Part shown: positions 19,569 to 50,197 of the stretch, piece by piece
Layout: each line of letters opens with the position of its first letter
Position numbering within the stretch: position 1 is the stretch's first letter
Origin: an uncultured Acidimicrobiaceae bacterium
GTDB lineage: Bacteria > Actinomycetota > Acidimicrobiia > Acidimicrobiales > RAAP-2
Reading direction: 5' to 3'
NCBI GenBank assembly: GCA_963730735.1
Contig: CAVSSX010000010.1
Coordinates: 61,619 to 125,618, forward strand
DNA length: 64,000 nucleotides
Made by a program: the position numbers and the translations under genes
Notes under the pieces: model-generated
Database searches by the model: none
Told to the model about the DNA's origin: nothing
Seen by the model: the letters and a program-made list of their open reading frames with translations, nothing else

Positions 19569-21290
19569 TCATCGAGCCACACGCGCCGACAGGGCGGCGC
19601 GCGAGTCGATGTCGAGGCGGCGATAGACGTCGCCGAGGTGCTTCTCGATCGTCTTGACCGAGACGTGCAAGGTCCGCGCCGCCCCGTCGTTGGTGTAGCC
19701 ACGGCTGATCAGGTCGGCAACTTGGCGTTGGCGTGGCGTGAGCTGCTCGGCCCACGGAGCGGTGCCCGGCTGCTCGGTGAGGGCGCGGGGCACCGCCGCC
19801 CGGGACGGCAGATCCAGCGCCTTGAGTACCCGCCGGACGTGGCTCTGGGCCGTCCGGGGGGAGACGCCGAGGGCGGCGGCGATCCGCGCGTTCGATGCGC
19901 CGGCCAGCAAGAGCTCGGCCACCTCGTGCTCGCGTGGGCTCAGCGGGGCCTGGGGTTCGCCGATGAGCCGCAGCCCGATGCTGCGGAGGTCACGGCGGGC
20001 CAGCAGGGCCAACGACGTGGCCCCCAGCGAGAGCGCCTGCGCGCTGGCCGTGGACAGCGCCCGACGGGCCGATCCCGGGTCGTCGGCTCGCAAGAGGAGG
20101 GCGGACCCGGCCACGAGCCGGGCTCGGGTGGCGTCGAGGTGGCCGGCGCTGTCGGTGGCCATTGTCGCCGCCCGTTCGGCCAGCACGGCGCCCGCCGCCA
20201 CCTCGCCGTCGGCCACCGCCAGCCGGGCGCGGATCCGGTCGACGGCGGCCACGGCCATGCCGTGCGGGGGCAGTCCGGTGAGGGCCCCGGCGCGCTCACC
20301 CCACTGCTGTGCCGCCGGGATGTCACCCAGACTCAGCGCCGCCGTGACGAGCAGCTCGTAGCCGTAGGCCCGGTCGACCAGCTGGATGTGCGGGAGTCCG
20401 GGACCGCCGGCGCCGCGGAGGAGGATGTCGACCGCCGCCGTCGCCTCCTGGGCAGTGGCCAGGGCGTAGGCCGTCAGGATCAGGGCGCCGGAGACGAAGT
20501 AGCCGGCGGGACAGCGCGACGCCAAGGTGTCGATGGCGGCGACGTGCCGGTGCAACTCGTCGTGGCGGCCTCGCAAGGCGTCGACGTAGGCCCGCGAACC
20601 CCGGACCACCAGTCGCAATGCGTCGAGCCCGTGACGTTGTGCGGCCCGTTCGACGTGTGGCGCCAGGGCGTCGGCCTCGTCCAGTCGACCCTGGAACAAC
20701 AGCGCGCGGACCAGGGCCTGTCCGGCGAAGACGGCTTCAGGGTGGTCGGCTTCAGGTGCGGCCCACCACACCCGGTCGGCCACTATCTCGGCGAGATCGA
20801 GACGGCCGACCGACATCGCCGCCTCTGCCGTGAGGGCGGCGGCCCAGAGGTTGTCCGCCAGATCGTTCTCGTCCAGGCCGAGCACGGCCGTCACCGTTCC
20901 TTCGACCGCCGCCACGTCGGACCCGTTGCGCTCCAGGCCGCCCATGGCCGACGACAGCGCGCACAGCGCCCGGAACAGGTGCGGCTCGGCGCCGCCGGAC
21001 AGGCCGGAGCAGGCATCGTCGTAGGCGGCCTCGAACCGGGCCTCGAGGATCGAGGCGAACGAACGTCCGGCGGCCAACCGCCCCTGACGCGCCGACGCAC
21101 CGCCGGCCTGCGCCAGTCCCGGTTCCACCAGCCGACGGATGTCACCGGCGTCGCCGCGCAACAGGGCGAGCTGGAGCGTCACCCCCTCGTCGCCCGGTCC
21201 CCGGTCGATGGGCCCCTCCCTCGGCGCCGACTCGTCCTCGGACCGCTGCTGGGCGGTCGCTGGCAGCGGCGACGCGGCTCGGGTGGACAC
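19569..21290 (-). CDS. LuxR-family regulator with a helical-repeat N-domain and two tandem GerE-type HTH domains
   Basis: The C-terminus contains LSPREHEVAELLLAGASNARIAAALGVSPRTAQSHVRRVLKALDL. Seventeen residues later comes LTPRQRQVADLISRGYTNDGAARTLHVSVKTIEKHLGDVYRRLDI. I saw no Walker A motif in the Ala/Leu-rich N-terminal ~440 aa. Confidence 0.8.
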   Translation of the reverse strand: MSTRAASPLPATAQQRSEDESAPREGPIDRGPGDEGVTLQLALLRGDAGDIRRLVEPGLAQAGGASARQGRLAAGRSFASILEARFEAAYDDACSGLSGGAEPHLFRALCALSSAMGGLERNGSDVAAVEGTVTAVLGLDENDLADNLWAAALTAEAAMSVGRLDLAEIVADRVWWAAPEADHPEAVFAGQALVRALLFQGRLDEADALAPHVERAAQRHGLDALRLVVRGSRAYVDALRGRHDELHRHVAAIDTLASRCPAGYFVSGALILTAYALATAQEATAAVDILLRGAGGPGLPHIQLVDRAYGYELLVTAALSLGDIPAAQQWGERAGALTGLPPHGMAVAAVDRIRARLAVADGEVAAGAVLAERAATMATDSAGHLDATRARLVAGSALLLRADDPGSARRALSTASAQALSLGATSLALLARRDLRSIGLRLIGEPQAPLSPREHEVAELLLAGASNARIAAALGVSPRTAQSHVRRVLKALDLPSRAAVPRALTEQPGTAPWAEQLTPRQRQVADLISRGYTNDGAARTLHVSVKTIEKHLGDVYRRLDIDSRAALSARVAR

Positions 21291-21360
21291 GGTCTCACCG
21301 TACTAATTCGCAGAGGATTGCGCGGATGCGACGCAACCGCACAGCGCCGAGGCGTGGCCG

Positions 21361-32103: not shown

Positions 32104-32967
32104 TCAGGCCGCCGGCCGCAAGCCGGCGTCGAGGGCCACCGAGACGGCGGCCACCGCAGAGTGCACTCCGAGCTTCTTCTGGAGGTTCTGGCAATGGGTG
32201 CGGATCGTGTTGGTCGAGACGTGCAGCCGGCTGGAGATGGCCGTGTGACCGAGTCCCTCCACCAGCAGTCGCAGGACCTCGAGCTCCCGCTTGGTCAGCG
32301 CCGAGAGCAGCTTGGAGGACTCGGGCGCCACCGGCTGGGACGAGGTCTGCAGCAGGCCGGTCAACAGCGGCGGCGACATCCACACCTGCCCCTTGACGGC
32401 CCACCGGGTCGCCTCGACCAGCTCGTGGATGGGGGCCGACTTGAGGACGAACCCCTTGGCCCCCTTCTGGAGCGCCCGGGCGGCCGTGGCCTTGTCGTCG
32501 TCGCTCATGAGGACGACCACCACCAGGCGGGGGTTGACCGTGTGGAGCTCGTCGAGCAGGTCCATGGCGTTCATGGCGTCGAACTCGGCGTCGAGGATCA
32601 AGACGTCGGGTCGCTGGTTGAGCACCAGGTCGTGGGCGCCCCGGGCCGAGGTGGCCGAGCCGATGACCCGAAGGCCGGTCTCGTCGGCCAGCATGGCCGA
32701 CAGCGACTCGCACAGCATGGGCTGGTGGTTGACGATGGCCACGGTCGTCGCCGGGCCGGCGTCGGCCTGGGGCTCCTCGGGCCGCACCGGCGTGCGGTCG
32801 GCCGGGGCCTCCCGGCCGAAGTCGATCCCGGCCGAGAGCAGCCGACGGCCGGTGCCCCGACGGTCGAACTGCACGCCCCGTTGCTGGACGATCAGCTCCT
32901 GGTCGGACGGCTGGTCGTCGTGGCGGATCCGCCACTCGATGTTGCGCAGTGCCTCGCCCATGGTCAC
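32104..32967 (-). CDS. Atypical LuxR/NarL-family response regulator (degenerate acidic pocket, 75-aa N-terminal extension)
   Basis: The receiver reads VAIVNHQPM where DD is expected. The phospho-acceptor position is kept (VLILDAEF), as are Ser (VLMSDD) and Lys (FVLKSAP). C-terminal HTH: LTKRELEVLRLLVEGLGHTAISSRLHVSTNTIRTHCQNLQKKLGV. The GTG at 32967 overlaps the upstream TGA. Confidence 0.8.
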   Translation of the reverse strand: MTMGEALRNIEWRIRHDDQPSDQELIVQQRGVQFDRRGTGRRLLSAGIDFGREAPADRTPVRPEEPQADAGPATTVAIVNHQPMLCESLSAMLADETGLRVIGSATSARGAHDLVLNQRPDVLILDAEFDAMNAMDLLDELHTVNPRLVVVVLMSDDDKATAARALQKGAKGFVLKSAPIHELVEATRWAVKGQVWMSPPLLTGLLQTSSQPVAPESSKLLSALTKRELEVLRLLVEGLGHTAISSRLHVSTNTIRTHCQNLQKKLGVHSAVAAVSVALDAGLRPAA

Positions 32968-33638
32968 GCCGTCCTCGTCGAGGACTCGTCCTCATGCTGC
33001 AGGAGGCCATTGCGGGCGGCGTAGGCGACGAGCTCGAGCCGGGAGTGGACGCCGACCTTCACGTACAGGTGCTGGAGGTGGGTCCGGACCGTCGAGACCC
33101 CGACGTCCATCGACTTGGCGATCGACGAGGTGCTCTCCCCCCGCCACAGCCGCATCAGCACGTCCTGCTCCCGGGCGGTGAGGGCCGGCGTGCCCTTGCC
33201 CCGCTGGCCCCGGCCGAGCGACTTGGCCAGGTGCGACCAGGCCTTCTCCGACGGCGTGTGGGTCCGCCGCTTGCGGATGGCCGGGGCGCTGACCCGACGG
33301 AGCAAACGCTCAACCTCTTCTACACCTTCAGTCTTGAGGGCCACACCGTCGGCCCCGTCCTCCAGGGCCTGCTGGAGCATGGTCCGGTCGGAGTCGGCGG
33401 TGAGCACGACGATCGGGATCTCGGGCATGGCCTCACGCAGCAGGCGCACGCCGGCGGTGTCGGCCATGCCGGGGAAGTGCAGGTCGGTCAGCCAGACATC
33501 GGCCTCGTCCCGGTTCTTCAGGGCCAGGCCCTGCTCGGGCGAGGACACCTGGGCCAACACCTTGTGGCCCCGCTTCATGAGCAGGGTCGACAGCGCCTCG
33601 GCAAACATCATGTGGTCGTCGCAGATAACGATTTGCAT
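32964..33638 (-). CDS. NarL/LuxR-family response regulator (canonical receiver)
   Basis: MQIVICDDHMMF, VWLTDLHFPG, VVLTAD and GVALKTEG give a complete phospho-acceptor site. HTH: LTAREQDVLMRLWRGESTSSIAKSMDVGVSTVRTHLQHLYVKVGV. Confidence 0.9.
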   Translation of the reverse strand: MQIVICDDHMMFAEALSTLLMKRGHKVLAQVSSPEQGLALKNRDEADVWLTDLHFPGMADTAGVRLLREAMPEIPIVVLTADSDRTMLQQALEDGADGVALKTEGVEEVERLLRRVSAPAIRKRRTHTPSEKAWSHLAKSLGRGQRGKGTPALTAREQDVLMRLWRGESTSSIAKSMDVGVSTVRTHLQHLYVKVGVHSRLELVAYAARNGLLQHEDESSTRTA

Positions 33639-34188
33639 GCTCTCAGCTCGCTTCTGGACCGGCGGTCCAGTGGTAGTTCCGACGTGTTTGCCGTGCGACC
33701 CCACCGACGGTACGCGAAATGCGCTCGGGGTCCAAAAGGGGCCGGCGGGCCCCGTCCACGTGCGAGTGTCCCGGTCCCCCGGCCGACACGGAGCTCTGGC
33801 CCACGACGAGGCGCAGGCCCCGCCGATCACCCATCCTGAGGTTGGTACTCGCTGTCACATGAGAAGTAACGGGCCACATCATCAACATGCACGGTTCAAT
33901 CCCAATTTCTCCACAATTTCTCGTAACCCCCGTTGGGTTTTGTGCGAAAACGAGCTGCAACTACCACTGCACACGGAGCAATCGTCGGCGGTCCCGGCCG
34001 TCGGGGTCACGGCCGTCGGATCCTCTGCTCGGCCCTGCTCCTAGCAGCCGCGGCATGAGGTCGCGCCGGGGGCGACGAATGTCCTGGTGGGAGCGTCGCC
34101 CGGACGTCGGCAACCGGCGGCGCAGCTGGCGCTCGATGGTCGGCCCACCTCCCCGTTGCGGCGCTCGGAGGCCACCACTTTCCGCAGA

Positions 34189-34213
34189 TAGTGTGCAACC
34201 GGTAGTGTGCAAC
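34189..34213 (+). promoter_or_regulatory. Two phased direct repeats TAGTGTGCAAC (14-bp period), candidate regulator binding site
   Basis: TAGTGTGCAAC occurs at 34189-34199 and again at 34203-34213 (13/14 identical including flanks). Further TAGTG cores lie at 34263 and 34271. All sit in the spacer between the response-regulator operon and the ECF sigma gene. Confidence 0.35.
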
Positions 34214-34425
34214 GGGAGACGCCTTGTAACCATGACGGAGTTGTGATTGAATTTGATTGCTGTAGTGATCTAGTGCTACATCATGAGGGGCTACTGACGG
34301 AGGTAGTACCGATTGATGACGTGAAGGCTCTGCACATTGTCGGGGTGCGCAGAGGGAGAGCAACCGGGGTGACGGGACCCCGCCAGGAACAACCGACGAA
34401 CACCGAGGGATAACGAGCCACCGCC

Positions 34426-36266
34426 ATGCTCCAATCCGACGACTTCGAGAACGACACGAGCCCCCGTGAACGAGACGGCTCGGTCGACCTCGCCCGCGAC
34501 GCCGAGCTCGTCCGCCGCTGCCAGGGGGGCGACCAGCAGGCCTTCCAGGAGCTCTACGAGCGGTACCACCGCCGGCTCTACTACTACTGCCTCCGCCAGG
34601 TGCGGCAGCACCACGAGGCCGAGGACGCCACCCAGGAGGTCTTCTCCAAGGCCTGGCGGGCCCTCCCCAACTTCTCCGGCGAGCGGCGCTTCTACCCCTG
34701 GCTGACCGTCATCGCCTCGAACGTCTGCACCGACATGTACCGCAAGTCCCACCGGACGGTGCCGGTGAGCGACGTGCCGCAGAACGAGGTCGACGTCCGC
34801 ACGGCCGACTCGGACGAGCAGCTGATCCAAGAGGTCGACAGCGAGATGGCCGTCAAGGCCCTCGGGCGGCTCTCCCGCCGCCACCAGCGGATCATCGCCC
34901 TGCACGAAGGCTCGGAGTGGTCGACCCGGGAGATCGCCGACCTCGAGGGCATCAGCGTCTCGGCCACCGAGACCCTCCTGTGGCGGGCCCGCCAGGCGCT
35001 CAAGCGCGAGTTCGCCGACGTCGCCCGGGCCGGCGGCCGCTACGGGATCGGCCTGGGCGTCGCCCTCGCCGGCATCCGTCGCTTCGTCCTGCGCTCGGGC
35101 ATCAAGACGTCCTCCAAGATCGCCTTCCTCCCCTCGCTCCGCAGTCCCATCGGCCCCACCATGGCCCTCGCCGGGACCCTGGCCGTCACCGGTGCGGTCA
35201 CCGGCGTGGTGACCGGGGCCGTCTGGGTGGGCTCCTCCAACCAGACCTACGCCGCCGCCGCCACCCCCCAGCAGCAGCCGAACTCGGTCGACCTGGTCAA
35301 CGGGTCCCCGCAGGTGGCCGTGGACGGCGACTTCGCCGCCGCCATGAACGGCATCCCGATCGCCCTCGGCAACAGCGTCGTCGGCACCATGTTCGGTCTC
35401 GAGTCCTCCAACCTCGGCGGCGCCGGGAGTTGGAGCATCGGGGCCGCCGGCACCACCGCCGCCAACTCGACCCTCCTGTCCGACGACGGGACGCTGCCCG
35501 ACGGCTCGGACCCGGGCACCGACCCGACCGACACCACGGACACCACCGACCCGACCGATCCCGGCGACACGACCGACACCACCCAGCCGGACCACCCGAT
35601 CGCCGACGCCGTGCAGAAGTTCCTCGAGTCCCTGGCGGCCCAGAACGCCAACTCGAACATCCTGGCCATCCTGAGCCAGGCGGTGACGGGCAGCGGGACC
35701 ACCACCACCACGACGCCGACCACCACCGACGGCACGGGGACCGACGGCACCGGACCGACGGCACGGGCACCGACGGGTCCACGTCGGGTGACACGTCGGG
35801 TGACACGTCGACGAGCACGGTCCAGTCGACCATCGACGCCATCCTGCAGGCCGCCGAGGAAGCCCTCCAGGCGGCCGAGGCCGCCTGGGCCAAGGCCCAC
35901 CCGACGACGACCACCACCACGGCGCCGCCGGCCACCACCTCGACCACGGCTCCGGTGACCACGACCACCACGGCGCCGACCACCACCAGCACGACGTCGT
36001 CGACCACCACGTCGACCACCTCGACCACGTCGACCACCCTGCCGCCGACCACCTCGACGACGGCACCGACCACCACGACGACGGCACCGACGACGACCAC
36101 CACGACCAAGCCGGCGACGACCACCACGACCAAACCCACGACCACCACGACGACGAAGCCGCCCAAGACGACGACGACCACCGCCCCGGGCTCGACCACC
36201 ACCACCACGACGGCGCCCCTCCAGGGCCTCTTGTGCAAGCTGTTCGGGATCGGCTGCAACACCTGA
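34426..36266 (+). pseudogene. ECF sigma factor fused to TM helices and a long Thr-rich extracytoplasmic region; frame broken at ~35751-35755
   Basis: Sigma regions 2 and 4 (DAELVRRCQGGDQQAFQELYERYHRRLYYYC...; EWSTREIADLEGISVSATETLLWRARQALKRE) continue without a stop into hydrophobic segments (YGIGLGVALAGI; MALAGTLAVTGAVTGVVTGAVWV). A Gly/Ser/Thr/Asp-rich region follows. At DGTGTDGTG the frame shifts (one base missing in ACCGG-ACC) into ...DGTGTDGSTSGDTS...AILQAAEEALQAAEAAW...(T-rich)...LLCKLFGIGCNT, ending at 36266. Confidence 0.75.
35901..36215 (+). repeat. (ACC/ACG)n-rich low-complexity coding tract (poly-Thr/Pro/Ser)
   Basis: About 105 codons are dominated by Thr (TTTTTTAPPATTSTTAPVTTTTTAPTTTSTT...KPTTTTTTKPPKTTTTTAPGSTTTTTT). 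Confidence 0.8.
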
Positions 36267-36316
36267 CCCGACCGGTCCGGCGTCCGATGACGCCACCGCC
36301 CCGCTCGAACTGACCA

Positions 36317-36344
36317 CCAGCCGCCGTCAAGGGGCGGCGGCTGG
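36317..36344. terminator. Hairpin between convergent genes
   Basis: Perfect 10-bp stem CCAGCCGCCG / CGGCGGCTGG with an 8-nt loop, 50 nt after the 36266 stop. Confidence 0.5.
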
Positions 36345-36402
36345 GCAGTGCGAGAAGTGGGCGACGGCCGTCAGGCCCTGACGGCGGACCTCGCCCGACG
36401 GG

Positions 36403-37347
36403 TCAACCGGGGCGGAGCCCCCACGTCGCCTCCCAGGCCTGGTTCGGCTCGAGCACGACCAGATCGTCACCCGAACGGAAGGCGTCGGGCGGGCACGTCA
36501 TCGGCTCGATGGCCACCGCCGCCCGCTTGCGGTCGGGGTCGCCGATGGTGTCGCCCGTGTAACACATGAGGTACGAGAAGCGATCGTCGACCCACAGCTC
36601 GAGGCTCCGGTCGTCGATCGGGTTGCGCAGCGACGCCCGGGCCAGGCCGTCGCCGTCGCGACGGAGCCCGGTGAAGGCGGTGTCCATCTGGCTGTGTCCG
36701 ATGGAGCGGCTGCGCAGATAGTCGAACTCGGAGCCGGCCACGTCCACGACCTCACCCGTCGGCAGGCCCCGCTCGTCGAGCACCAGCCGCTGGGTGGCCG
36801 GCAGGTGGAGGATCGACGAGTCGACCCGGTCGGTGCCGACGGTGAGGTACGGGTGGAAGCCGAGGCCGAAGGGCAGCGTCAGGTGGCCGGGGTTGCTGGC
36901 CGTGGTGGTCACCGACAAGCCTTCGCGGCCGAGCCGGTACTCCACTCGAAGGTCGAGGAGGAACGGGTAGGCCGGCATCGGATGGATCCGGTAGGTCAGG
37001 ACGACCACGTTCTGGGCGTGAGCCTCGACGTCCCAGGGCGACCAGCGGACCAACCCGTGGATGGCGTTGGACTTCTCGACCTCGTTCAGGGGCGCCGCGC
37101 CGGCGACCCCGGCGAACTCGTAGGTCCCGTCACCCAGCCGGTTGGGCCACGGCGCCAGCACCTGACCGCGTCCGCTGTGTGACCATTCGTCCGCCCCGAA
37201 GCCGTCGATCACCGGTTGGCCACTCACCGTGTAGGACCGCAGCGTGGCACCCACCTCGGCCACCACCACCTGCTGGCGCCCGTGTCCGATCATCCACTGC
37301 TTGCCGGTGGGAGAACTGGGACCGTCGAGGTCGTGGCGGAGCGGCAT
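36403..37347 (-). CDS. Aldose 1-epimerase (galactose mutarotase-like) family protein
   Basis: ATG at 37347. WPNRLGDGTYEF, NAIHGLVRW, GFHPYL and IEPMTC are typical segments. The upstream part of the 549-aa track ORF is antisense to surE. Confidence 0.85.
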   Translation of the reverse strand: MPLRHDLDGPSSPTGKQWMIGHGRQQVVVAEVGATLRSYTVSGQPVIDGFGADEWSHSGRGQVLAPWPNRLGDGTYEFAGVAGAAPLNEVEKSNAIHGLVRWSPWDVEAHAQNVVVLTYRIHPMPAYPFLLDLRVEYRLGREGLSVTTTASNPGHLTLPFGLGFHPYLTVGTDRVDSSILHLPATQRLVLDERGLPTGEVVDVAGSEFDYLRSRSIGHSQMDTAFTGLRRDGDGLARASLRNPIDDRSLELWVDDRFSYLMCYTGDTIGDPDRKRAAVAIEPMTCPPDAFRSGDDLVVLEPNQAWEATWGLRPG

Positions 37348-37395: not shown

Positions 37396-38262
37396 GTGCG
37401 GATCCTGGTGACCAATGACGACGGGGTCCATGCGCCGGGCTTGGCGGCGATCGCCCGGGCCCTGGCCACCTGGTCGGCGGCGGCCTCCGACGGTGAGGAA
37501 CGCGATGTCGTGGTGGTGGCCCCGCTGATCAATTTCAGCGGGGCGAGCGCCGCCGTCGGCACGGTCTACGAGCGCGACGCCATCGACTACCGACGGGTGG
37601 TCATCGAAGGGGCCGAGGCGCTCCCGACCTTCGGCATCGACGGATCGCCCGCCTTGTCCACCATCGTCGGCATCCTCGGCGGCTTCGGCCCGACGCCCGA
37701 CCTCGTCGTCTCCGGCGTGAACCTCGGGATCAACGTCGGCCGCTCGGTGCTGCACTCGGGCACCGTCGGCGCCGCGCTGACGGCGTCGCAGATGGGCGTG
37801 CGCGGCCTCGCCCTCTCGATCCGATCCATCAAGGGCCCCATCCCCTGGACGACGGCCACCACCTGTGCCGTCCAGCTGTTGCCCACGATGGCCGCCGCCC
37901 CGCCGGGCACGGTGTTGAACCTCAACGTCCCGGCGGTGGAGCTCGACGAGCTGCGCGGTGTGCGGCGCGGCCGGGTGAGCCGCATCGGTCTGATCAAGGC
38001 GGCGACGACCGAGGGCGGTCCCTTCACCCGACCCGACGTCGCGCCGGGCCACGAGGGGAAGGTGGCGCTGGTCCTCGGGGCCGCCGTGCCGGAGCTCGGC
38101 GCGGTCGACGACGGTGACCCGAGTGACGACGCCGCCTTGGTCGCCGAGGGCTACGCGTCACTGACGCCACTGGTCAGCGTGCGGGCCGATGAGCGCCCCG
38201 ACACCGAAGAAATCGTGCAACGGGCGCTTACCTCGCTGCAGCCCCTCTTGACCCCCCGCTGA
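37396..38262 (+). CDS. surE: 5'/3'-nucleotidase SurE
   Basis: GTG start, then RILVTNDDGVHAPGL (the SurE signature), SGVNLGINVG and HSGTVGAAL. Confidence 0.9.
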   Translation: MRILVTNDDGVHAPGLAAIARALATWSAAASDGEERDVVVVAPLINFSGASAAVGTVYERDAIDYRRVVIEGAEALPTFGIDGSPALSTIVGILGGFGPTPDLVVSGVNLGINVGRSVLHSGTVGAALTASQMGVRGLALSIRSIKGPIPWTTATTCAVQLLPTMAAAPPGTVLNLNVPAVELDELRGVRRGRVSRIGLIKAATTEGGPFTRPDVAPGHEGKVALVLGAAVPELGAVDDGDPSDDAALVAEGYASLTPLVSVRADERPDTEEIVQRALTSLQPLLTPR

Positions 38263-38729
38263 CCTCGGCCCACGCGTCGAGCCGACCGTCGGCGTCGCCA
38301 TTCGGCGGTCCGCCGACGGCGCGACCCGTTGCTCACCCACAGTGGGTGGGGTACGTTGCGCCCACTCGTTCAACCAACGGTGAGCGAGCCACCACACAGC
38401 GCGGAGGCTGTGAGCGGGGCGAAGTAGCGCTTCCCGGTGGCTCTTCCCGCTGCCGCTCCATTCCACTTCGGCCCACCGGGCCCTAGCGGCTGACGATCGC
38501 GGCGGCGCCCGACCGACCCACGACCCCTGGCTCTTCCTCCGCGCGCCAACACGGAGGCATCAGCACCGACATCCAGGGTCTTCCCGTCTGCACCTCGTAG
38601 GGACCTACGTGAGTCCAGGGCCGCCCGTCCTTCCGACGCCGGCTTGCGAGATGAATGCACCAAGGACGGCTGCCCGCATTCCATGCCCACCGAGCCTCCG
38701 GGCTCGTCCTCACGAAGAGGAGGCGCAAA

Positions 38730-39547
38730 ATGCGCAAGCACCGATTGTTTGGCTTCACCATCGCTCTCCTGGTCGTGGTCGGCGTGTCGCTCCCCCCGTC
38801 GACCGTCGCCAATGCCTCGAACACCCCGTCGACCGGCGGCGTCGACCGCACAGCCGAGCGGGCCGGCCCCGACGGCGAAGCTCCTCGTCGACTCGAACGT
38901 GACGACCACCGACACCCCGTCGAACGCCGACGGCATCGCCGCCGACTACCGGATCGCACCGACCACGACGATCCCGGTGGCCGCACCCGCCGACGACCTC
39001 TCGACGATCCCCGGGCGTGGCACCGGTCAACCTGCCGGCCACCGTCTTCCCCCAACAGCGCGCCTACTTCGGCGACCTGGCCGTCCAACAACAGACCCAG
39101 ATCGACGCCGCCCTCGTCTCCATCACCTACCTGCGCTCGCTGGCCGCCGCCCAAGCGGCCCAGGCGGCGGCAGCCCAAGCGGCGGCGGCCCACGCCGCGG
39201 CCTCGGCGGCCCAAGCGGCGGCGGCGGCGTTCGCCGGCGCGCAACACGCCGCCATCCCGGCAGCCACACCGACGCCGACGGCACCGGCGGCGTCCACGGG
39301 CGCGGCACCGGCCGGGGGTGCGTGGGCCGAACTCCGTCAGTGCGAGTCGGGCGGCAACTACGCCGAGAACACCGGCAACGGGTACTACGGCGCCTACCAG
39401 TTCGCGCTGGCCACCTGGAACGGACTCGGGTTCTCGGGACTCCCCAGCCAGGCCTCCCCGGCCACCCAGGACGCGGCGGCGGCCGAGCTCCAGGCGCGCA
39501 GCGGCTGGGGCCAGTGGCCGGCGTGCTCCCGCAAGCTCGGACTCTGA
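38730..39547 (+). pseudogene. Secreted resuscitation-promoting-factor (Rpf, transglycosylase-like) protein; two frame breaks
   Basis: A strong RBS (GAGGAGG) precedes the signal peptide MRKHRLFGFTIALLVVVGVSLPPSTVANA in frame 0. The middle part (PTAKLLVDSNVTTTDTPSNADGIAADYRIAPTTTIPVAAPADDLSTIP) is in frame 1. The Ala/Gln-rich linker and Rpf domain (WAELRQCESGGNYAENTGNGYYGAYQFALATWNGLG) are in frame 2. The junctions coincide with a CCCC run at 38867-38870 and CCCCGGG at 39009-39015. Confidence 0.8.
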
Positions 39548-39599
39548 GCCGACCCGGGTCGCACCCATACACCAGTAAACGAACGGGTTCTGCGCGGCG

Positions 39600-45487: not shown

Positions 45488-47053
45488 TCAGGCCGGCCGG
45501 AGCTCGGCGGCCAGGTAGGCGGTGAGCCCGCCGGCGATGCCCTGTGCCGCCTGGGCCCGCCACGTGGCGCTCTGCACCAGGCCGGCGTCGGTGGCGTTGC
45601 GCATGTTGGCACACTCGATCAGCACCTTGGGGACGGTGGACAGGTTGAGCCCGCCCAGGTCCGCCCGCTGGTCCAGGCCGTTCTGGCCGCTGTAGTTCGA
45701 CGGCGGCTCACCGGTGTCGCCGGCGAAGGCGTTGCGCACGTCGACGGCCAGCTGTTGGGAGGGGGCCACGATGGGCGTCGAGTTGGAGATGGAGCTCACC
45801 ACCGGCAGGGGCGAGGTCACGTCGAAGCCCCGGCCGCTGGCCGGACCACCGTCGGCGTGGATCGAGATGGCGGCATCGGCGTGGGCGTCGTTGCCGATGG
45901 CCGCCCGTTGGTCGACGCACGGCCCGACCCCGGTGTCGGTCGTGCGGGTGAGCACCACCTGGGCCCCCTCGGCGACCAGGAGGGCCGCCACCTGGGTGGC
46001 CACGTCGAAGTTGAAGGCGTGCTCGGCGTACCCGTTGTCGGTCGCCGTCCCGACCGTGTCGCACGCCTCTTGGAACCCGCCGGAGTTCTCCAGCTGGTCG
46101 ATGGAGCCGGCGGCGGCGGCGTTGCCCCCGTTGTGGCCCGGGTCGATGGCCACGACCTCCCCGGCCAACGGCGGCACCGAGACCGAACCCTGGTAGCGGG
46201 CCGACCCGTAGGCGAAGATGCCACCGTCGCCCCCCGCCACCAGGTAGCCCCGACCGTCGGCGCTCGGCACCAGGGCCACCGCCGCCCGGGCGAGGCCCAG
46301 GTCGGCGGCCGAGCCGTAGAAGGGGGCCCCGAAGGCGAAGATCCCGCCGTCGGCGGCCACCAGCCAGTAGCCACCGGTCGCCGGGTCGGGCGCCATGCCG
46401 GTGATCGGGGCGGCCAGGGTCAGCGAGCCGGTCGAGCCGGCGAACGGGGCGTCCCCGAAGGCGAAGATCCCGCCGTCGGCGGCCACCAGCCAGTAGCCAC
46501 CGCCGTCGGGCGTGGCCGCCATCCCGACGACCGACTTGTTGAGGGCGATGGCCCCGGTCGAGCCGAGGAAGGGGGCGCCGAAGGCGAAGATCCCGCCGTC
46601 GGCGGCCACCAGCCAGTAGCCACCGGTCGCCGGGTCGCCGGCCATGCCGACGATGGGCTGGTTGAGCGCCCGCCCGCCCATCGACCCCTGGAAGCGGGCG
46701 TCGCCGTAGGCGAAGATCCCGCCGTCTCGGGCCACCAGCCAGTAGCCACCGCCGTCGGGCGTGGCCGCCATGCCCACGATGGGCTGGTTGAGGGACAGCG
46801 ACCCGGCCGAGCCGTAGAAGGGGGCGCCGAAGGCGAACACGGCGCCGTTCGACGCGGCCAGCCAGTAGCCACCGGTCGCCGGGTCGGCGACGGCATCGAC
46901 GAGGGGCGCCACGCTGGTGGGCACGCTGGTCTCGTGGGCGGACGACCTACCGGCGGCCCCGGCGAGCGGGGCCGAGACGACACCCACGCCCAGGGACAGG
47001 ATCGCCACGGCGGCCAACGCGCGGCACCGCCCGATCACGCCACCTCGCACCAT
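45488..47053 (-). CDS. Secreted N-acetylmuramoyl-L-alanine amidase (Amidase_3) with a six-repeat N-terminal domain
   Basis: A signal peptide is followed by six ~41-aa repeats (consensus ..P.TGGYWLVAADGGIFAFG.A.F.GS.G...L..P.VGMA). Then comes VVAIDPGHNGGN...ISIHADGG...KVLIECANMRN, typical of MurNAc-LAA. Confidence 0.85.
   Translation of the reverse strand: MVRGGVIGRCRALAAVAILSLGVGVVSAPLAGAAGRSSAHETSVPTSVAPLVDAVADPATGGYWLAASNGAVFAFGAPFYGSAGSLSLNQPIVGMAATPDGGGYWLVARDGGIFAYGDARFQGSMGGRALNQPIVGMAGDPATGGYWLVAADGGIFAFGAPFLGSTGAIALNKSVVGMAATPDGGGYWLVAADGGIFAFGDAPFAGSTGSLTLAAPITGMAPDPATGGYWLVAADGGIFAFGAPFYGSAADLGLARAAVALVPSADGRGYLVAGGDGGIFAYGSARYQGSVSVPPLAGEVVAIDPGHNGGNAAAAGSIDQLENSGGFQEACDTVGTATDNGYAEHAFNFDVATQVAALLVAEGAQVVLTRTTDTGVGPCVDQRAAIGNDAHADAAISIHADGGPASGRGFDVTSPLPVVSSISNSTPIVAPSQQLAVDVRNAFAGDTGEPPSNYSGQNGLDQRADLGGLNLSTVPKVLIECANMRNATDAGLVQSATWRAQAAQGIAGGLTAYLAAELRPA
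46150..46900 (-). repeat. Tandem ~123-bp coding repeats (six copies) within the amidase gene
   Basis: At DNA level, GCGAAGATCCCGCCGTCGGCGGCCACCAGCCAGTAGCCACC recurs near-identically at least four times on the plus strand. Confidence 0.75.
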
Positions 47054-47166
47054 CGAGCGTCTGCCCTCCCTGCCCTACCCCCGGGGAACCGGAGCTAGCT
47101 GCACGCTACGCCCGAGACCTCGGTGGCCGCCCACCGACCGGGGTCACCGGTCGGTGGGCGCTCGGC

Positions 47167-50017
<2,851 letters not shown>

Positions 50018-50145
50018 GTCCCTGGACTCCTCTGTTCGTGTGCTTGGGGGCTTCGTGTCCGACAGACTGCATTCTGCGACCGGGGTGCGACAGCTACCCC
50101 CGGATGCTGCTGGTGGCGAACTTCGGGGTGCGGCCCTTTCGGCCC

Positions 50146-50197
50146 CCCACCACAACATGTTGTGGTGGGCTTTCCCCCGAGGCACGAGATAGTGGGT
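50146..50197 (-). promoter_or_regulatory. Tandem NrdR-box-like sites upstream of nrdJ
   Basis: A 24-bp perfect palindrome CCCACCACAACATGTTGTGGTGGG lies at 50146-50169; its 16-mer core matches 12/16 of the NrdR box consensus as I recall it. A weaker box (ACCCACTATCTCGTGC on the gene strand, 11/16) lies at 50182-50197. The centres are 32 bp apart, which is the usual NrdR tandem spacing. Confidence 0.5.

Follow-up and report, generated by a model that had tools for sequence, protein, structure and literature searches.

Extracytoplasmic function (ECF) sigma factors with C-terminal extensions that span the membrane have been catalogued, yet they are still poorly characterised (PMC8999054, PMC7826278). 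The best mechanistic model among them is IutY of Pseudomonas putida (ECF243), in which a cytosolic ECF sigma factor, one transmembrane (TM) helix and an extracytoplasmic domain are combined in one polypeptide, and which is silent until Prc trims its periplasmic part and RseP cuts it in the membrane; Prc favours loosely folded substrates and C-termini that are small and hydrophobic (PMC5411451). The same cleavage route has been predicted for ECF48, ECF52 and ECF53 (PMC8999054, PMC5826349), actinobacterial ECF sigma factors with a TM extension, a Pro-rich or low-complexity exterior and no separate anti-sigma gene (SCO4117 of Streptomyces coelicolor belongs to ECF52); in these groups release by a protease has been proposed but is unproven. 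In this study, we analysed a gene of this build in a stretch of 64,000 nucleotides from an uncultured Acidimicrobiaceae bacterium (assembly GCA_963730735.1, contig CAVSSX010000010.1, positions 61,619 to 125,618 of the forward strand), which is referred to here at its full length as the window and has a G+C content of 71.5 %. An earlier note, made from the sequence alone, had described the gene product as an ECF sigma factor fused in a single open reading frame (ORF) to TM helices and a Thr-rich ectodomain, and its remark that such proteins are catalogued but little understood agrees with the surveys cited above. We show here that the fusion is genuine and, by sequence comparison, that the window gene is one member of a conserved family, so far found almost only in Acidimicrobiia.

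ECF48, ECF52 and ECF53 have been described, and are compared here by description, as carrying a zinc-finger (ZAS-like) domain between sigma region 4 and the membrane, which the Acidimicrobiia family lacks. In ECF48 and ECF53 this zinc finger is combined with one or two TM helices (PMC8999054), of which the family has the TM part only, and ECF52 has in addition a carbohydrate-binding module, whereas the window protein has a Thr/Pro tract but no Pfam domain in its extension. The family's own features are a linker of about 50 aa, a conserved juxtamembrane helix and an LLGG-type C-terminus. IutY differs in its folded FecR-type periplasmic domain, its TonB-dependent receptor signal and its Gram-negative envelope; the family is actinobacterial, with a low-complexity ectodomain that has no recognisable domain and with no linked receptor gene. 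The best model for what the tail may sense is RsgI/SigI of Bacillus subtilis, where a disordered ectodomain detects cell-wall gaps, gates cleavage by RasP and works even when scrambled (PMC9732909). The family likewise has a disordered ectodomain, which is probably extracytoplasmic; however, RsgI is a separate anti-sigma factor with a conserved juxtamembrane (SEAL) domain that cleaves itself, and SigI falls outside the ECF type, whereas in the family an ECF sigma factor is itself fused to the membrane segment and no such domain was detected. The classical systems RpoE-RseA, AlgU-MucA and SigW-RsiW, which contain the nearest solved sigma domains, have separate anti-sigma factors with a class I domain of about 80-90 aa and folded sensors, and RpoE, AlgU and SigW are released by intramembrane proteolysis of these anti-sigma factors. 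A TM-containing C-terminal extension is also found in ECF01-Gob of the Planctomycetes. In ECF263 the C-terminal extension has five or seven TM helices (PMC7826278); both groups differ from the Acidimicrobiia family in phylum, in the number of TM helices and in the appended domains. The protein described here is a variant of the already catalogued sigma factors with a membrane-spanning extension and not a new kind of system; what is added is a conserved family without an anti-sigma domain, a disordered ectodomain and a conserved C-terminal motif.

Architecture of the protein and conservation of the family

The window protein is a member of the ECF (group 4) sigma-70 family. As had been claimed, sigma regions 2 and 4 are complete: residues 27-199 make up a complete ECF-type sigma factor, the Pfam models PF04542, PF08281 and Sigma70_ECF (PF07638, covering aa 27-196) all exceed their cut-offs (Table 1), and the NCBIfam model TIGR02937 (sigma70-ECF) reaches 91 bits against a cut-off of 42.9. 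Regions 2 and 4 are separated by only about 30 aa, and neither sigma region 3 nor sigma region 1 is present. None of the NCBIfam equivalog models matched the window protein at its cut-off, and the solved structures nearest by sequence are AlgU, RpoE and SigW (E 1e-16 to 5e-14). The public gene model P0001 is identical to the ORF as sequenced, and the claim of a single ORF is correct for the gene after repair of one indel, while the sequence as given stops at 35958. No paralogue of the sigma gene was found elsewhere in the window. An antisense ORF of 679 aa (34291-36330) is a high-GC artefact, with an Arg/Gly/Trp-rich translation and with the Pfam domains on the sense strand.

Table 1. Features of the sigma factor gene and its surroundings, with positions in the window
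Feature	Position	Strand	Remarks
Two tandem NarL/LuxR response regulators (REC + GerE)	32104-32967, 32964-33830	-	Divergent from sigma gene
Divergent intergenic region	33831-34425		595 bp; GC dips to 0.56; GGAAC at 34386-34390
ORF as sequenced	34426-35958	+	510 aa; last ~69 codons an Arg/Pro-rich out-of-frame tail
Reconstructed gene	34426-36266	+	One base put back near 35751-35754; 613 aa, ending in LLCKLFGIGCNT
Sigma region 2 (aa 43-110)	34552-34755	+	PF04542, E 7.8e-18; AlphaFold pLDDT >90
Sigma region 4 (aa 142-192)	34849-35001	+	PF08281, E 4.2e-8; terminates in family-invariant LLWRAR
Conserved juxtamembrane segment (aa 196-231)	35011-35118	+	GG-R-x-G, 12-aa Gly/Ala/Leu apolar patch, Arg-rich stretch
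Apolar patch, segment 1 (aa 206-217)	35041-35076	+	YGIGLGVALAGI; 12 apolar residues, Arg on both sides
Single predicted TM helix, segment 2 (aa 246-268)	35161-35229	+	MALAGTLAVTGAVTGVVTGAVWV; Ala/Val/Gly/Thr-rich, 23 aa, apolar
Ectodomain part 1, original frame	35230-35750	+	Gly/Ser/Asp/Thr-rich; TDPTD repeats 35515-35583; predicted helix aa 391-406
15-bp tandem repeat	35725-35776	+	Unit ACCGACGGCACGGGG x3.5, codes DGTGT; holds frame break
Ectodomain part 2, shifted frame	35751-36266	+	STSGD repeat, helix, Thr/Pro tract, C-terminal motif
Helix of part 2	35838-35897	+	AILQAAEEALQAAEAAWAKA
Thr/Pro tract	35898-36218	+	107 aa; 62 % Thr, 14 % Pro
C-terminal motif	36219-36266	+	LQGLLCKLFGIGCNT, with Cys pair
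GC-rich hairpin	36317-36344		CCAGCCGCCG-loop-CGGCGGCTGG; 3' of repaired stop, before convergent aldose-epimerase gene
Aldose 1-epimerase	36403-37332		Convergent; neighbour of sigma gene
SurE	37399-38262		Neighbour of sigma gene

A search of 5.8 billion proteins returned 750 matches at E<1e-5. The best 120 of these are 373-529 aa long, except for three models of about 300-340 aa that are truncated or partial, and show 42-65 % identity across the sigma core and linker; the named matches are ECF sigma factors of 'Acidimicrobiales bacterium'. When one genome per GTDB species was scanned, 233 loci were obtained, nearly all of them in metagenome-assembled genomes of Acidimicrobiales or Acidimicrobiaceae. 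The one cultured carrier is Aciditerrimonas ferrireducens JCM 15389 (L075), and several genomes have two copies of the sigma-TM-tail gene. All statistics on the architecture were drawn from 163 non-redundant members, and every one of them joins an ECF sigma factor in the same way to a membrane anchor and a long tail of low complexity, with no stop between region 4 and the anchor. The gene is therefore not the one-off that it had been taken for but one of 233 GTDB-species loci, and this membership gives more confidence in its function while making the single gene less strange.

In the 163 members, sigma region 4 ends in the invariant LLWRARQALKREF and is followed by GG-R-x-G, a Gly/Ala/Leu patch of about 12 aa and an Arg-rich stretch. 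The TM helix begins at a median distance of 59 aa past LLWRAR and consists of 37 % Ala, 19 % Val and 13 % Gly. The tail measures 78-382 aa (median 164) and is composed mainly of Gly (22 %), Ser (15 %), Thr (14 %), Ala (13 %), Val (9 %), Leu (8 %) and Pro (7 %), with less than 4 % charged residues. A hydrophobic LLGG-type motif is present within the last 15 residues of 91 of the 163 tails, against an expectation of 8.9 derived from other stretches of this length in the same tails; two Cys residues flank this motif in the window copy and in the products of L046 and L049, which would fit an extracytoplasmic disulphide. All elements of the family occur in the window protein, which also keeps all 40 invariant columns of alignment A1 (its own row being included in the scoring), and the linker profile matches it at E 3.6e-14.

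No known anti-sigma domain was detected in this family. The Pfam models, including PF13490, gave nothing at E<=1 on the extension of the window protein and only noise, with no anti-sigma family, on 35 diverse extension segments, and neither set contained a match to FecR or a related family. The earlier note had reported that the linker has no zinc anti-sigma motif, and this holds throughout: HxxxCxxC is found in 0/163 members, 146/163 are free of Cys in the extension, and the window linker has neither Cys nor His. Nor is there room for a class I anti-sigma domain, which consists of four helices in about 80-90 aa, as only about 50 aa lie between sigma region 4 and the TM helix, and these are modelled as a single helix. 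The absence of an adjacent anti-sigma gene was likewise borne out, the neighbours being response regulators, an aldose epimerase and SurE.

AlphaFold models were obtained for aa 1-441 of the window protein and for a relative, P0116. In both, sigma region 2 has a predicted local distance difference test score (pLDDT) above 90 and region 4 one of 80-97 (80-89 in the window protein), and the last helix of region 4 runs on through the apolar patch with a pLDDT of 65-86, covering aa 178-227 of the window protein and aa 177-229 of P0116. Over most of the tail the pLDDT is below 50, with one or two short amphipathic helices, of which the C-terminal motif of P0116 is one, and no folded domain is seen in the tail of either model, including the juxtamembrane part of the ectodomain. 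As modelled, the ectodomain is largely disordered and of low complexity. The window copy is atypical in that its ectodomain has about twice the median length, an acidic first half and 30 % Thr overall; it measures about 345 aa, less than the 400 aa or so given before. The TDPTD and DGTGT repeats described in the earlier note were located, as was a short helical segment followed by about 100 Thr/Pro codons, the latter two in the shifted frame; the protein end LLCKLFGIGCNT is encoded up to 36266 but is reached only after the one-base repair. In an actinobacterial host the Thr/Pro tract could plausibly be O-mannosylated, and the proteolytic release, O-glycosylation and cell-wall spanning suggested in the earlier note are reasonable conjectures.

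Proposed tethering and release of the sigma factor

On balance, we consider it probable that the window gene encodes a one-polypeptide membrane-tethered ECF sigma factor with a single TM helix in an N-in/C-out orientation and a disordered ectodomain, which is kept at the membrane in an inactive form and released by proteolysis. We infer that the tether would keep the sigma domain inactive, perhaps with a contribution of the juxtamembrane helix, and that an envelope signal may be read by the disordered ectodomain or by the C-terminal motif. Such a signal would trigger trimming of the ectodomain, for which a C-terminus-recognising or PDZ protease or signal peptidase are candidates, and a site-2 protease would then cut the helix-destabilised TM segment and free the sigma domain to bind RNA polymerase. 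The Ala/Gly-rich TM segment, the unfolded ectodomain and the conserved small hydrophobic C-terminus would all suit a release route of the IutY type, and by analogy with RsgI the disordered ectodomain may be a cell-envelope sensor. It is possible, and is put forward here only tentatively, that the family forms a distinct Acidimicrobiia class of one-component ECF sigma factors without an anti-sigma domain, in which the sigma factor is tied to the membrane and the uncharged disordered ectodomain and the C-terminal motif serve as an RsgI-like sensor and as a handle for a PDZ or C-terminal-processing protease; the window copy would then be a long-reach version for a thicker wall, its Thr/Pro tract possibly O-glycosylated.

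Several findings weigh against a membrane-tethered sigma factor that is released by proteolysis. With about 50 aa, the linker leaves too little room for a class I anti-sigma domain, which makes silencing of the tethered sigma factor hard to account for. The locus has no linked protease gene, and there is no conserved neighbourhood across the family, the contexts of which include a sortase locus, CYTH-CHAD and an Mce/MlaE operon. Neither of the two promoter motifs seen upstream of relatives (see below) is present upstream of the window gene, and the GAACGG-type motif occurs nowhere in the window. The TM segment of the window copy is marginal, with a Kyte-Doolittle (KD) value of 1.65 and a Hessa sum of +2.8 kcal/mol, and AlphaFold draws no helix there (pLDDT <50). 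Finally, a real frameshift would leave the window copy without its Thr/Pro tract and C-terminal motif.

It has to be considered whether the sigma factor might work while tethered, recruiting RNA polymerase to the membrane uncleaved in the manner of ToxR or CadC, with the ectodomain acting allosterically or by clustering. The lack of any detectable anti-sigma domain or partner and of a linked protease would agree with this, and the long helix that emerges from sigma region 4 could be a rigid spacer. Against it, the roughly 50 residues between region 4 and the bilayer would be a tight fit for a holoenzyme of about 400 kDa, and the Ala/Gly-rich TM segment appears to resemble substrates of site-2 proteases. 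In addition IutY, the sole sigma/membrane hybrid that has been characterised, requires cleavage (PMC5411451), and we regard activity in the tethered state as unlikely.

The frame break in the ectodomain

The earlier note had flagged an indel at 35751-35755, and a repeat unit of only 14 nt was found there: the second (middle) unit of the tandem repeat (35746-35759) reads GGCACC-GGACCGAC and is one base short. The missing base would be a G, and the restored repeat would read GGCACCGGGACCGAC. The G+C content at third codon positions (GC3) of the frame that starts at 34426 is 0.93-1.0 up to about 35750 and 0.2-0.6 afterwards, whereas that of the frame 34917-36266 climbs to 0.90-1.0 at about 35750 and is kept at this level through the stop at 36266. 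There is no ATG, GTG or TTG in the shifted frame near the switch, and it is therefore not a separate gene. The helix, the Thr/Pro tract and the C-terminus downstream of about 35751 all lie in this other frame, so that one inserted base is needed to join them to the sigma factor, and the reconstructed C-terminal end has the hydrophobic motif of the family. The GC3 pattern, the lack of a start in the new frame and the family's C-terminal motif led us to take the 613-aa repair as the working model.

A GC3 frame-switch scan of the whole window proved too noisy, with operon boundaries looking alike, and two other genes were inspected directly instead. The gene for the class II (B12-dependent) ribonucleotide reductase NrdJ (47170-50197, minus strand) is frame-broken near 48384, with PF08471 and positions 1-394 of PF02867 encoded in the frame 48386-50197 and positions 409-523 of PF02867 and TSCPD in the frame 47170-48384. 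A gene for an Rpf-like secreted transglycosylase (38729-39578, plus strand) is spread over three frames, with the signal peptide MRKHRLFGFTIALLVVVGVSLPPSTVANA at about 38729-38850, a middle part at about 38850-39005 and the Transglycosylase-like domain PF06737 (E 5e-20) at 39005-39578, which amounts to two apparent indels inside 300 bp. A ribonucleotide reductase is normally essential, and a break in its gene speaks for assembly indels over real mutations; with two further genes of the window switching frame, the frame break at about 35751 is most likely an assembly indel, as judged from the sequence.

The alternative, that the break is genuine, so that the window copy is decaying or truncated and yields 510 aa ending in a junk tail, or that its repeat-rich tail is prone to slippage and varies in length within the population, would be in keeping with the position of the site within a tandem repeat and with the out-of-frame Arg-rich tails that are common in the public models of the family. 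However, GC3 values of 0.90-1.0 in the shifted frame up to a family-typical C-terminus give no sign of decay, slippage by a 15-bp unit would preserve the frame, and the NrdJ and Rpf-like genes of the same window are broken in a similar way, which points to assembly indels. There is, in our estimation, little chance that the break is real.

Out-of-frame Arg-rich tails were seen in P0009, P0014, P0096, P0133, P0135, P0136, P0139, P0151, P0152 and P0154 and at the loci L007 and L042; the tail of P0135 goes out of frame and then back in frame. The GC-rich low-complexity tail of this sigma family is evidently prone to assembly errors, or possibly unstable in nature, and with such tails in database entries the annotated lengths and C-termini of members are often wrong.

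Membrane topology and the separate-gene question

Both hydrophobic segments reported in the earlier note are present after region 4, with no stop in between, but only the second qualifies as a TM helix. Segment 1 has only 12 apolar residues, is flanked by Arg and has a summed Hessa value of +7.4 kcal/mol (family median +6.3), whereas the sum for segment 2 has a family median of +1.8 kcal/mol, and segment 2 beats segment 1 on this sum in 163/163 relatives; the Hessa scale values were summed without position weighting. In a 19-aa window the KD values of segment 2 reach 1.7-2.5 among relatives. The mean net charge in the family is +1.3 over the 15 residues before the TM helix and +0.2 over the 15 residues after it, as would suit a sigma domain in the cytoplasm and a tail outside. 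Two crossings, by comparison, would place the Arg-rich loop outward and the Thr/Pro tail in the cytoplasm, both of which are improbable. These data suggest a topology with one TM helix, N-terminus in and C-terminus out, and an extracytoplasmic tail would also fit the positive-inside bias and the Cys pairs that enclose the C-terminal motif of L046, L049 and the window copy.

Were there no membrane anchor at all, the protein would be a soluble sigma factor whose disordered C-terminal region serves in regulation or degradation. Apart from the marginal values of the window copy, this idea could draw on the low AlphaFold confidence at the hydrophobic stretch (the pLDDT over the TM segment is below 50 in both models, and a TM helix is drawn only in P0116) and on the abundance of Ala, Gly and Val throughout the tail. 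On the other hand, the position of the hydrophobic peak is fixed in 163/163 members, with KD values of up to 2.5, and is preceded by an Arg-rich stretch, charged residues are nearly absent from the tail, and some members have Cys pairs in it. The Thr/Pro tract is moreover of a type typical of secreted or cell-wall-spanning regions in Actinobacteria. A soluble protein is for these reasons improbable, and a single-pass membrane anchor is preferred.

A profile of the linker and TM segment was run against 1.84 billion representative proteins and gave 47 matches at E<1e-3. Twenty of the 47, in which the module is atypically placed, were inspected and are sigma-fused, N-terminally truncated fragments that keep part of sigma region 4, or over-extended calls; in the remaining matches, except for the low-complexity P0121 and P0149 (uninspected), the proteins measure about 280-560 aa and have the module after about 170-290 aa. 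Among the 1.84 billion representatives, with 20 of the 47 matches inspected, the extension was never seen on its own. That a sigma gene and a separate anti-sigma gene have been wrongly joined can be dismissed for practical purposes, as the stop between region 4 and the hydrophobic segment that such a case calls for was looked for and is absent from the window and from about 60 complete homologous ORFs re-extracted from their genome loci, and no stand-alone homologue of the extension turned up.

Genomic context and upstream regions

Upstream of the divergent intergenic region lie two response regulators, each of which has, from the listed GTG starts, an N-terminal extension of about 65-75 aa before the receiver domain. 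A look through the ORFs annotated from 25 to 43 kb turned up no histidine kinase, and the pairing with response regulators was not seen beside the homologous sigma genes examined. In one subfamily (L004 and about 24 similar loci) the sigma gene is located between a divergent MlaE/Mce operon with six MlaD-domain genes and a downstream ABC ATPase gene; clustering of neighbours confined this link with Mce/MlaE and the ABC ATPase to that one subfamily, which does not include the window. For L004-type members this hints at a lipid-transport or envelope regulon.

Two kinds of upstream motif were found in the family. GAACGG-N16-ACCTTTCGG is present upstream of 16/76 family genes, with unconserved spacers, and is placed 60-215 nt upstream in L001, L002, L005, L007, L008, L009, L011, L015, L017, L035, L036 and L079; a conserved GAAAATTTxTT...GCTACCCTCGTT block comes after it in the closest subfamily. 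This motif is a candidate ECF-type autoregulated promoter and, with the GAAAATTTxTT block, a candidate promoter plus leader. A second subfamily has the housekeeping-like TGGACT-N15-TGAGTACTCT upstream, and GTGGACTT-N14-TGAGTACTCTTAGTGGT, about 100-180 nt upstream in L022, L026, L031, L038, L044, L046, L047, L059 and L062, resembles a housekeeping promoter that has an extended -10 element. The different motifs indicate that the subfamilies control the transcription of their sigma genes in different ways, and with the promoter motif absent from the window no regulon can be inferred. A scan for sigma-70 promoters and consensus terminators had no match, and the only Rfam match in 33700-36500 was a chance one to a long non-coding RNA. 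The hairpin downstream of the repaired stop has a fold z-score of -3.7, with 0/200 shuffles as stable, and no U-tract; it is a candidate bidirectional terminator.

Less than 11 kb downstream of the sigma gene are two peptidoglycan hydrolase genes, one being the Rpf-like gene and the other encoding an Amidase_3 N-acetylmuramoyl-L-alanine amidase (45491-47074, minus strand) with an N-terminal region of about 300 aa; no promoter link between these genes and the sigma factor was shown. A 577-aa protein (19572-21302, minus strand) has two C-terminal GerE/LuxR helix-turn-helix matches; its first 450 residues or so gave no Pfam match.

Implications

For the single gene in the window, the outcome is a solid annotation rather than a surprise. 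Among the ECF sigma factors with membrane extensions only IutY has a worked-out mechanism, and the family described here, reduced to a sigma factor, a helix of about 50 aa, one TM segment and a disordered tail, represents a minimal case. This minimal build poses the questions whether tethering alone silences a sigma factor and whether a disordered ectodomain can sense. The family would also offer a regulatory handle for the Acidimicrobiia, a widespread yet hardly studied lineage of soil and water, and its cultured carrier, Aciditerrimonas ferrireducens JCM 15389, could be used for experiments.

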